In this document: positions 16,366 through 49,030 of the stretch, piece by piece
Position numbering within the stretch: position 1 is the first letter of the stretch
Layout: every line of letters begins with the position of its first letter
Assembly: GCA_951406725.2 (NCBI GenBank)
Contig: OX597822.1
Location: forward strand, 7,626,001-7,690,000
Direction of reading: 5' to 3'
Source: Octopus vulgaris
Lineage: Eukaryota
DNA: 64,000 nucleotides
The notes under the pieces: generated by a model
Seen by the model: only the letters and a program-made list of their open reading frames with translations
What the model was told of the DNA's origin: nothing
The model's database searches: none
Translations under genes and position numbers: made by a program

Positions 16366-17655
16366 CGAGGGGCGTTCAATAAGTAATGCCCCTGACCCAC
16401 TTACCATACCAGTAGAGCAACGGAACTTGGCACAGTTATTGGACTTTTTCTACATAGGAACCACTCAGAGTTAAGCAATTCTCCCATCGTTTGATCCAGC
16501 TCTGGAGACCGTTTTTGTAAAAGACCCCAGCTTGGTCCTCCATCCACGACGTGACTTTAGAAATCAAGGCTGCATCATCTGGGAAATGCTTTCCTTTCAA
16601 AAACAACTTCATGGCTGGGAAGAGGTGAAAATCAGAGGGTGCAAGGTCAGGAGAGTCGGGGGTGGGGGAGGAGTTCATAGCCGCACGCCTGTGCTTCTGA
16701 TCTGGCGACACGTGAGTTGTGGACCGGAGCGTTGTCCTGCAGGAGGAGGATGCCTTCGCTGATCTTGCCCCGCCTCTTGATTTTGATAGCTTCTCTTAAT
16801 TTCCTCAAAAGTGAAGCATAATAGGCTCCTTTAATTGTGGTACCCTTTGCCAGGAAATCTGTCATCACTACTCCGTCCTGGTCCCAGAAGACTGTGAGCA
16901 TGACCTTGCCAGCAGAGGGCTGCACCCTTTCCGTCTTTGGAGGAGGTGAGTCACGGTGCTTCCACTGCATTGACTGGGCTTTGTCTCTGGATCATAGTGA
17001 TGGACCCAGGTTTCATCCTGTGTAATCAGACTTTTGAAAAAGTTTGACTCATCTTCTTGGTACGTCTCCAAATTCATCCTCGAGCACTCGACGCGTTCTT
17101 GCTTCTGGAAAAGTGTGAGCAGCCTGGGAATCCATCTGGCAGACACCTTTTGCATATGCAAATGGTCATGAATGATAGTTTCCACAGACCCGGTACTAAT
17201 CTTGACCTCATGGGCTATTTGGCGAATAGTTATGCGTCGATCTTCCAAAATGGCAGCCTCAACTTGACGGACAGATGCCTCATCAATGGCAGATGGGGGT
17301 CGACCAGATCTGGGAGCTGTTTCCACAGTGTTCCGACCATGTTTGAATTCACGATGCCAGCGTTTTACAAGGTCATATGATGGGGCATCATCACCATAAG
17401 TTACTTTCATTTCATCAAAAGTCTCCCGTGGTGTGCGTCCTTTCAAATACAAAAACCGGATCACTGCTCGACACTCAACAGGCTCCATTTCACACTTGAC
17501 TCAGTTCAAACACCAGTAAATCAGAAGCCATAATAAGTTCAGAGCTGTAATTTGCCGCCTAATCTATAGAGATATACGTAATTGCACATGCAAAATATCA
17601 GCTAGATCAAACACCTGGAAGTGGGTCAGAAGCATTACTTATTGAACGTCCCTCG
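16366..17655 (-). mobile_element. Full-length mariner (DD34D, irritans-like) transposon, 1290 bp
   Basis: 37 bp TIRs CGAGGGGCGTTCAATAAGTAATGCCCCTGACCCACTT vs the 17619-17655 reverse complement (3 mismatches); TA TSD at 16364-16365 and 17656-17657. Confidence 0.95.
16436..17488 (-). pseudogene. Mariner transposase disrupted by two frameshifts
   Basis: Three overlapping ORFs carry the HTH N-terminus, WIPRLL, ITQDETW, YDPETK, LLQDNAPVH and SPDLAPSDFHLF motifs. Confidence 0.95.
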
Positions 17656-30529: not shown

Positions 30530-31745
30530 AACTTAATCTTGGTCCTCCTCCGCCGAGTGACGCATTGGGTGGTAAGGTTTCGGGAGCGGCGATTTCAGCT
30601 TCATCCCATGAAACATCAATGGTTTTGAGGTAATCAATGAAGGTGCGGTACCAAGTCGCTTTTAGCCTCTCTTGTTTACACTTGTCATGTGTGGCATCCA
30701 CAAAATAGCGGTGACGATGTTAAATTGGGGGACGGGGCCTGCGAATCGCAATGACAACCTCATGGAGTGGACGGATATCAGCTCACCGATGTATCTTGTT
30801 GTTGGTGATGTGTTCTGGGTATGATATTAGTAGTATCCGCCGGAGGTATCTTAGCTGAAATGCATTGATCATTCGCGCAATCTTTGCCAATGTTTTCCAT
30901 GTTTCCACCGCGTATATTGCCGATGGTATCATGGTGCTGTTGAAGAGCCGCACTTTGCTCTTGGTGGAGATCGGCCTGCTTGCCCAGATGGGTTTGCGTC
31001 TTTGAAAGACAGCCGATGCCTTCCCAATCCGGCAAGCAACGTCTCGTTCTGAGTCTCCGTTGTTGACCACGTCGCTGCCCATGTAGGTAAACCCATGAAC
31101 TTCATCGAGTTGGTGTTGTCCAATGATGAAGAGGACACGATAATTGTTCCCATCGATATATCCAATCGCCATGATCTCCGTCTTCTTTGCACTTATACAG
31201 AGTCCGGTCATAGCCGCCTCCCGTTCCAATCTCTCTGTCATCGGTGAAGTCGCGGTCAGCCAGGCGCCCCGCCCAACACCACGGAATCTCGAATCTGCAT
31301 AGTCCCGCTTATGACGAAGTCGATTGCCATAATAAATAGGAGAGGGGATACAATGGACCCTTGCCGTACACCGGTCTCAATGACAAAGTAGTCGGTATAG
31401 CCCATGTCCGTTCGAATGCAGCACCGAGACTCGCTGTAAATGCTCTGAAAGACGTCGACAATACGCTCGGGAATGATGAAGTCACGAGCGATGCACCGCA
31501 ATGAACTCCGGTGTTCGCTGTCCAATGCTTTGACAAAATTAATTTTAAATGATTGATTGCCATTGCTGATATTCCAGGCTTTGTTCGATAATTTTGCGCC
31601 ACGTGAAGATTTGTTCATTGCACGACCGCCCGCATCGTGCCTCTTCTCGGAGCCTCTCCTCCACCACTCGTTGCAGCCGTCTTAAGAAGACGATACCGAA
31701 GACCACCTTGGGGACAGATAGAAGCCTAATTCTTCTCCAATTATT
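30530..31745 (-). pseudogene. 5'-truncated RTE-clade LINE, reverse transcriptase remnant
   Basis: NWRRIRLLSVP, FVKALDSEHR, TGVRQGSIVSPLLF, FTYMGS, RIGKASAVF, YAVETW and RYLRRIL motifs across frameshifts; YADD segment missing; GC-rich block. Confidence 0.9.
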
Positions 31746-48516: not shown

Positions 48517-48564
<48 letters not shown>

Positions 48565-48570
<6 letters not shown>

Positions 48571-48995
48571 AATCTCTGAACGAGATATAAACAGTAACCG
48601 CTCGAGGCTAGCCACATTCAGATGGCTGAGTACACCTTACGTTGTCGAGCGGTTACTGTTTATATCTCGTTCAGATATTTATTATTGCTTTCAGACAGTT
48701 TTTCTAAATCAGCGACAGTGGTTGCTGTGAAAAACGTTAAATATTATTTGCAAGGGTCTCCTTCATCGAAAACCGGTGTTTACCATGCGTTGACGAGAGG
48801 CAATTACCTTGAAACTATAGTCCGTATGTAGCACTTAGGGTTTCGAGGAAGGATGACCTCCTTTTGCAAATAACACAAGGGCACTGAGATTGTGTCTGAA
48901 GTCCATCTGGTGACGTTGATCGCCTGGGGATAAAAGCATCAGTAACACCCCACCCCCAGTGGCTAGCCCCATTCAGATGGCTAGTACACTTTACG

Positions 48996-48997
<2 letters not shown>
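48565..48997 (+). mobile_element. ~430 bp hammerhead-bearing non-autonomous element with inverted 5' copy and terminal direct repeat
   Basis: Inverted repeat 48565-48605/48645-48685; direct repeat 48606-48644/48961-48997; both ends in (TA)n. Confidence 0.8.
48784..48828 (+). ncRNA. Minimal type I hammerhead motif (C3U variant)
   Basis: CATGCG-TTGACGA-GAGG CAATTA CCTT-GAA-ACTATAGT-C-CGTATG; GUC site ending 48822. Confidence 0.75.

Positions 48998-49030
<33 letters not shown>

Follow-up and report, generated by a model that had tools for sequence, protein, structure and literature searches.

The question raised by this locus is what kind of element occupies positions 48565-48997 of the window, the 64,000-nucleotide stretch of Octopus vulgaris DNA analysed here, and whether the hammerhead motif that it carries has a part in its spread. 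The element is most likely a non-LTR retrozyme, a known kind, and very probably a non-autonomous element of the Penelope-like (PLE) type. The best explanation overall, which we regard as probable without being secure, is a Penelope-type non-LTR retrozyme with a self-cleaving and probably circular RNA that is copied by a borrowed PLE enzyme. The parts of this explanation do not all have the same strength. That the hammerhead cuts in cells has, judged from the sequence, a good probability; the circular template is favoured more modestly. What is new here is not the class of element but a set of chimeras joined at the predicted ribozyme cut site and a pairing of two fixed 3' ends.

The element is one insertion with (TA)n on both flanks (48520..48564 on the left, a target assigned from the sequence and the (TA)4 bias of the family, and 48998..49027 on the right, assigned from the sequence). 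The preliminary description had placed it in (TA)n and had read it as a 41 bp inverted copy of the unit start, a 39 bp copy of the unit end and a unit of about 350 bp, and each of these parts is found. The first 41 nt (48565-48605, minus strand) are an inverted copy of 48645-48685 with 98% complementarity. They correspond to unit positions 1-41, and their outer end is the one called E2 below (unit 40-50). The inverted head is thus real, but it does not stand as a private feature of this element, being equal to the known PLE tail arm. The next 39 nt (48606-48644, plus strand) repeat the unit end 48961-48997 and the 2-nt unit link, from which they differ by three substitutions and one inserted base. 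They form a partial upstream unit (positions 317-354), the 5'-truncated start of the long arm (pseudo-LTR). The full unit of about 354 nt follows on the plus strand (48645..48997), with unit position 1 at 48645, and ends at the main fixed 3' end, E1 (unit 349-354/1-2). The window copy, whose E2 and E1 arms measure 41 and 390 nt, respectively, is an unexceptional member of the family. Its target duplication is unreadable, the insertion being inside (TA)n.

That the unit has no meaningful coding motif was correctly noted at the outset. When the unit is circularised, its longest frame from an ATG has 45 aa, and the GC content is 43.8%, i.e., below 50%. No open reading frame (ORF) for a reverse transcriptase (RT) plus GIY-YIG endonuclease lies inside the element or near it in the window. 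Elsewhere in the window, a mariner-like transposase fragment (16868-17500, minus strand) and broken LINE RT-like frames (30783-31681, minus strand) were recognised by eye.

The unit folds at -111 kcal/mol (z = -4.1), and 0 of 100 shuffles were equally stable. Hammerhead stem I had been proposed to extend into a long helix, and the fold agrees. A long imperfect rod (48744..48873, plus strand) contains the four proposed helices (48744-53/48864-73, 48755-58/48855-58, 48759-64/48848-53, and 48766-71/48841-46). The rod is accompanied by one compensatory pair between subfamilies, unit 127/197, which is A-U or G-C (phi 0.79). Linkage among the subfamily sites in general was rejected as covariation, since it is mostly phylogenetic and only pair 127/197 is two-sided. 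A terminal hairpin is predicted just upstream of the main 3' end (48959..48992, plus strand). It may be a candidate RT binding or start signal. A similar hairpin-plus-tail end, judged by eye, is present in sister families at 64-80% identity.

The motif itself is a type I hammerhead (48784..48828, plus strand). Its parts are stem I (48784-89/48823-28), the core TTGACGA (48790-96), stem II (48797-48810), GAAA (48811-14), stem III (48814-21) and GUC (48820-22), and the cut is predicted to fall after GUC on the plus strand, at 48822|48823. The core departs from the canonical one in the consensus of Perreault et al. (C3 U4 G5 A6 N7 G8 A9, G12 A13 A14 A15, U16 H17) in having U3, which makes a U3-G8 wobble. 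A second consensus departure, absent from the preliminary description, is that the 4-bp stem II is closed by G-U, not G-C. Stem III has 2 bp within the palindrome ACTATAGT. The minimum-energy fold of the monomer is without stem III, and reaching the active form takes 5.3 kcal/mol. Two copies can pair with each other through the palindrome at -8.6 kcal/mol, and a dimer mode is described for metazoan type I hammerhead motifs (PMC4209133). No Rfam hammerhead model matched, either at gathering score across the whole window or in a local search at E up to 10, which returned 29 weak matches to unrelated families, most of them on TA runs. Across 27 sequences of related families, 94.8% of the cells in the 12 hammerhead pairs are paired, against 10-52% in slid controls. 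Two-sided changes are seen in 5 of the 12 pairs, although these are few events on a tree.

Does the unusual core mean that this copy is impaired? The preliminary description suggested that it might, from the C3U change, but this change does not mark the copy as decayed. U3 is fixed in the family: all 39 cores have it (with two duplicate loci excluded), as do 95 of 96 insertions of a pattern-chosen and biased sample, whose pattern left position 3 free; the remaining core positions match the consensus. The reading of C3U as decay of this copy is therefore rejected. In an older sister family (~64% identical) the core reads CTGATGA in 16 of 19 cores parsed from 30 loci. The lower divergence of the core (0.86% vs. 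1.49%) was also rejected as evidence, a figure made unusable because an exact core pattern had been used to select most loci. Sister retrozyme-like families at 64-80% identity (L132:337-569, L201:2497-2751, L222-L250; L149:4011-4275, L137:3547-3699) share the end-and-tail layout, and the oldest of them keep canonical CUGAUGA cores. One instance of a further hammerhead unit, with an inverted head, a partial tandem and the core TTGATAA (U3-A8), was seen at L020:295-824.

The possibility of a single-copy sequence, raised in the preliminary description, falls away in the 2.8 Gb genome. An exact 32-nt core pattern has 242 matches genome-wide (0 for the reversed-pattern control), a DNA search gave 3190 first-look candidates (the best 40 were scored), and the copies are dispersed across many contigs. 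From 125 parsed loci, 104 insertions were kept after dropping exact duplicates, insertions less than 80 nt from a locus edge and any with a segment below 84% identity. They comprise 47 with two inverted arms, 46 with single arms and 11 that are more complex. The tandem and permuted copies that had been anticipated exist, as permuted tandem and inverted arms reaching 1099 nt, or 3.1 units, and the arrays seen are short. Two or three hammerheads lie in tandem at L020, L043, and L077. In contrast, the window copy has one, and so falls outside the definition of an 'active' retrozyme in Li et al. 2026 (two consecutive units with complete hammerheads).

The ends of these insertions are informative about how they were made. 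After removal of 8 loci fetched by end-specific patterns and 2 duplicates, 94 insertions were used for end statistics. E1 accounts for 71 of 139 outer 3' ends and E2 for 49, together 120 of 139, and the two ends are ~45 nt apart. The 5' ends, unlike the clustered 3' ends, are scattered. Where an insertion has two outer 3' ends (45 cases), both fall in a cluster in 31, and in 29 of these 31 two-armed insertions E1 is paired with E2 (p = 5e-7 vs. 0.5). In 45 of 94 insertions, (TA)4 lies no more than 20 nt away from an end, compared with 89 of 1537 background windows, and duplications of 8-18 nt occur at 18 of 49 non-TA sites, compared with 30 of 2352 mismatched flank pairs. Partial tandem, inverted arm, one-end tail, 5' truncation and microsatellite bias make up a Penelope-type footprint. 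For PLEs, the partial tandem, the inverted arm and a tail often at one end are described as hallmarks (PMC8557442), and the tail is said to be defined by two RT start sites between which it lies (PMC11167929).

An RNA template, circular or multimeric, had been proposed from the partial tandem, and the permuted tandem and inverted arms together with the PLE footprint uphold it; that the RNA is a circle rather than a linear multimer is something that we infer. This is where the strongest rival enters. It holds that the same PLE-type element is copied from uncleaved linear multimers of small arrays, that the U3 ribozyme is slow or vestigial, and that the chimeras described below are rare RT template jumps at a structured site. 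We consider it unlikely, but it has points in its favour. The two core departures and the inactive lowest-energy fold suit it, as does the report that uncleaved RNA is the main substrate of anole Poseidon in vitro (PMC11167929). Against it, the hammerhead stems covary across families and arms of 3.1 units are found despite short arrays.

What do the arms say about their template? At 25 subfamily-diagnostic sites, differences number 31 in 659 comparisons of units within one arm and 63 in 1085 between opposite arms, compared with 42051 in 102923 between insertions; non-diagnostic sites differ by 2-3%. Therefore, both arms come from one RNA or one source locus. Homogeneous linear multimers would yield the same concordance as a circle. 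Some discordance is present in 27 of 71 insertions, three of which have four discordant sites, and it is often at unit positions 113, 278, 308, or 346. These discordant insertions tell against a pure single-circle template and count in favour of linear multimers.

Among 119 arms, 95 cross the cut site (87 once, 6 twice and 2 three times), counts that are biased in that most loci were sampled for holding the core. The 3' product without the upstream C has 5 genome-wide matches, against 242 read-through cores. Two of them are point changes, one truly starts at the cut, and two fold back inside the palindrome ACTATAGT. These matches are too few for a pile-up of run-off ends at the cut. A circle is a simple explanation, although uncleaved homogeneous multimers could account for it too. 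One start and two fold-backs are at chance level, and 5' ends at the cut site were rejected as evidence of cleavage. Nor is there a pile-up of 5' ends at unit 125-131, the putative transcript start (2 stops vs. 1.84 expected), which speaks against linear multimers.

Two further observations concern the arms. Nine arms stop at unit 143-150 (window 48787-48794), at the stem I/core junction, where 2.3 are expected (P 7e-4 before correction for the choice of window), and these stops are possibly an RT pause. A 5.5-kb LINE-like element sits at unit 118-137 in both inverted arms of L062/L063 (G000:C4 124.12-124.14 Mb). The locus was set aside as proof of a linear template: an assembly gap is adjacent, the arms are 99.6% identical and the arrangement may be an assembly artefact.

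Indirect evidence for cleavage in cells comes from joints in the DNA. A genome-wide pattern was used to catch cores whose sequence departs from the unit immediately after GUC. Its 5 matches fall at 3 loci, one segmentally duplicated, one with two inverted arms and one single. All 5 continue into one foreign sequence of ~108 nt and then into (TA)n. It forms the 3' end of a second PLE-type family, which is abundant (1132 candidates), has two-armed insertions and adjoins only these 3 of the 104 insertions. The three loci carry different subfamily combinations; one has a partner-subfamily insertion common to 11 native loci and one differs at diagnostic site 135. From their sequences, the chimeras look like three separate events.

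In native copies of the second family, the ~108-nt end is preceded by a hammerhead-like motif with U3-A8, a 4-bp stem II, the palindromic ACCGGT and the triplet GTA. The joint lies directly after this GTA, to within one base given a run of A. This register has support from L172, where a related motif that keeps its GAAA intact lies downstream of a frame resembling a PLE endonuclease. Nevertheless, the partner's half of the joint is weaker evidence, because many partner copies start near there without being chimeric (of 29 selected matches, about a dozen begin at the joint site or close to it, a count with no control). In addition, 49 of 50 partner motif reads (not deduplicated) have C at position 13, which should cripple the motif. 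As a separate observation, the second family (L151:1525-1632, L159-L220) lies in (TA)n, appears by eye to have two 3' ends ~30 nt apart, and carries its motif (U3-A8, C13 GCAA) ~108 nt from its end.

A second genome-wide pattern allowed joints anywhere at unit 178-180. It added a fourth segment ending at GUC, joined in this case to unit 281, and gave no segments ending one or two bases past GUC; both patterns have blind spots. Thus 4 of 4 joints at unit 178-180 are exactly at GUC. Elsewhere, 33 internal 3' ends are spread over 334 positions, and the genome-wide expectation per position is 0.19-0.37, compared with 4 at GUC (P for 4 or more of 4e-5 to 6e-4). A free 3' end is the easiest explanation, and this is a difficulty for uncleaved multimers. 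However, RT jumps do occur, because unit 281 is not a cut site, and this point belongs to the other side. What if the joints were made by such jumps? A jump onto a cut end and ligation by RtcB have one thing in common, which is that either implies cleavage of the unit family. Self-ligation is unlikely because the partner 3' strand cannot pair with stem I of the unit family. No reciprocal chimera, with a foreign 5' part and the octopus unit's 3' product, is among the 5 matches without the upstream C. Taken as sequence evidence, the chimera joints are likely a DNA record of hammerhead cutting in living cells, and the cut ends of different elements likely become joined.

The fused segment is ~50 nt (48769..48822, plus strand; unit 125-131 to 178 at the three loci fused to the second family) and is predicted to be a 5' cleavage product or leader. 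The chimeras begin at unit 125-131, which is 30-37 nt past a TATA-like stretch (48737..48744, plus strand), as a lead only a possible promoter element. A sister family has a TATATATA run at the matching place. Perhaps the fused piece is a leader released from the primary transcript.

A second rival is that the unit is the terminal repeat of an autonomous Penelope-like element, of which the copies are 5'-truncated remains. The footprint is that of PLEs, the comparison covered only two autonomous families, and Xenopus retrozymes are reported to be homologous to PLE pLTRs (Li et al., 10.64898/2026.07.22.740005). Nevertheless, we hold this to be very improbable. Long arms always cycle back into the unit and enter no shared upstream sequence in any of the 104 insertions. 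The preliminary description had named constant attachment to a Penelope ORF as the observation that would count against it, and no PLE-like ORF is attached to the unit in the scanned loci L001-L100. The full 6-bp and 4-bp helices are also retrozyme-like and not of the minimal PLE type (PMC4209133). Neither of the two PLE-like families compared as possible autonomous partners shares sequence with the unit. The first has an intact 781-aa RT plus GIY-YIG with a CxxxxCxxC linker and is, by the description in PMC8557442, of the Neptune/Nematis type. The four copies viewed stop at (TA)n or close to it, and the family is a plausible enzyme donor, though without sequence common to the unit.

Some features of these families are recorded here in their own right. 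A young element with the intact 781-aa RT plus GIY-YIG, of which there are many copies, is found at L131:1826-4168 (G000:C6 near 133.35 Mb). A search with the C-terminal part of this family gave 20137 first-look candidates, of which the best 150 were scored. About 100 nt from the 3' end of the element there is a degenerate hammerhead-like motif with U3-A8. In the second autonomous-looking PLE-like family (L251-L286), the 3' UTR exceeds 2 kb, many of the copies form inverted pairs, and the hammerhead-like motif has a long stem II.

The remaining alternative, a satellite or miniature DNA transposon spread at the DNA level with an incidental hammerhead, would suit the copies, some in number, that lie within segmental duplications but is extremely improbable, being largely refuted by the truncation polarity (fixed 3' and ragged 5' ends) and opposed by the asymmetric arms, the 8-18-nt duplications, the dispersal over many contigs and the covarying hammerhead stems.

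Returning to the Penelope-type retrozyme with a self-cleaving RNA, a sequence of events can be proposed. RNA would be transcribed from the unit and would probably cleave itself at GUC 48820-22. The chimeras suggest germ-line cutting by the U3 hammerhead, which likely acts as a dimer held together by the palindromic stem III. The cleaved RNA would then probably be closed into a circle, perhaps by an RtcB-type ligase, and a borrowed Penelope-like reverse transcriptase/GIY-YIG endonuclease likely copies it into (TA)-rich DNA. The enzyme would nick both target strands and start once at E1 and once at the tail end E2, and the two starts would write two outward-facing arms. For the window copy, the E1 arm would have run 390 nt, beyond one full turn, and the E2 arm would have stopped after 41 nt. 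Sometimes the cyclic-phosphate end might be joined to the 5' end of another element, either by an RtcB-type ligase or by an end-to-end RT jump.

A bolder version of this last step is that hammerhead products of unrelated retroelements are ligated together in the germ line, probably by RtcB, and that the hybrids are retrotransposed. We offer it tentatively, as a possibility that we would not bet on. If true, a ribozyme cut site acts as a natural RNA recombination joint, which attaches a ~50-nt leader that includes the 5' half of one ribozyme to the 3' end by which another element binds its enzyme. Modules could be shuffled in this way, and new retrozyme families could be founded. It would also mean that cores dismissed as defective (U3-G8, perhaps even C13) cut in cells. 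Two wider questions are at stake: do the hammerheads of PLEs and animal retrozymes cleave in living cells, and does a PLE enzyme use a circle to mobilise retrozymes? For both, the family leaves genomic footprints that can be counted (joints exactly at the cut and strict start-site pairing), and it provides a small substrate for direct tests. A search for papers on chimeras between hammerhead cleavage products found none, supplements and subscription papers being outside its scope. Assembled contigs from runs presumed to be RNA cover the unit and have no ends or joints at the cut; they were given no weight either way.

How does the octopus family compare with known systems? The class was described as metazoan non-LTR retrozymes (Cervera and de la Pena 2020, PMC7229834), and such retrozymes have since been argued to be non-autonomous PLE sequences (Li, Clavereau and Pollet 2026, 10.64898/2026.07.22.740005). 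The octopus family shares with them a non-coding unit within 150-450 nt in full or partial tandem, a type I hammerhead with a short palindromic helix III, GC below 50%, target duplications longer than 4 nt and co-occurrence with PLEs, although its hammerhead is a variant core without an Rfam match. Its unit size is similar to the ~350 nt of axolotl and mussel retrozymes. It differs in that its copies are mostly dispersed two-armed inverted insertions of one to three units and not long arrays, in its family-wide U3-G8, and in that no homologous autonomous pLTR was found among the families compared. The cross-family cut-site chimeras are also a difference, with no mention of such joints found in PMC7229834 or Li et al. 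RtcB-type circularisation has been shown in vitro for other retrozymes (PMC7229834), and cleavage in vitro was reported for only 1 of 9 predicted frog retrozymes (10.64898/2026.07.22.740005).

The U3 departure also occurs in natural hammerheads elsewhere. U3-A8 cores are known, including in schistosome PLEs (Perreault et al. 2011, PMC3088659; Cervera and de la Pena 2014, PMC4209133), and one natural core combining U3 with G8, from a halophile, is cited in PMC7151607. What sets the octopus family apart is that both U3-G8 and the G-U base of stem II are fixed across subfamilies of a high-copy animal element, whereas its older sister family retains C3-G8.

PLEs with GIY-YIG (Craig et al. 2021, PMC8557442; Frangieh et al. 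2024, PMC11167929) are alike in the partial tandem, the inverted 5'-truncated arm, the two RT start sites, the AT-rich and (TA)n targets and a hammerhead within the repeat. However, the octopus unit has no ORF for RT and GIY-YIG and so is not itself an autonomous PLE. The PLE tail is 30-40 nt, often at one end only, and the octopus tail is 40-50 nt. Frangieh et al. report no strand preference of the start sites in vitro, whereas the octopus arms differ in their start in 29 of 31 cases. Similarly, for anole Poseidon no RNA-seq reads are reported to begin or end at the cut (PMC11167929), whereas the octopus DNA joints sit on it.

The closest parallel to the chimeras themselves is provided by the U6/LINE-1 chimeric pseudogenes (Moldovan et al. 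2019, PMC6789731). There, too, one RNA is predicted to end in a 2',3'-cyclic phosphate; it becomes attached to the 3' portion of a retroelement RNA, and the product is retrotransposed. RtcB ligation makes the join, with template switching remaining a rival there as well. In the octopus, by contrast, a ribozyme would generate the donor end, the two partners would be mobile-element RNAs, and the joint on the acceptor lies at a hammerhead-like site of its own.
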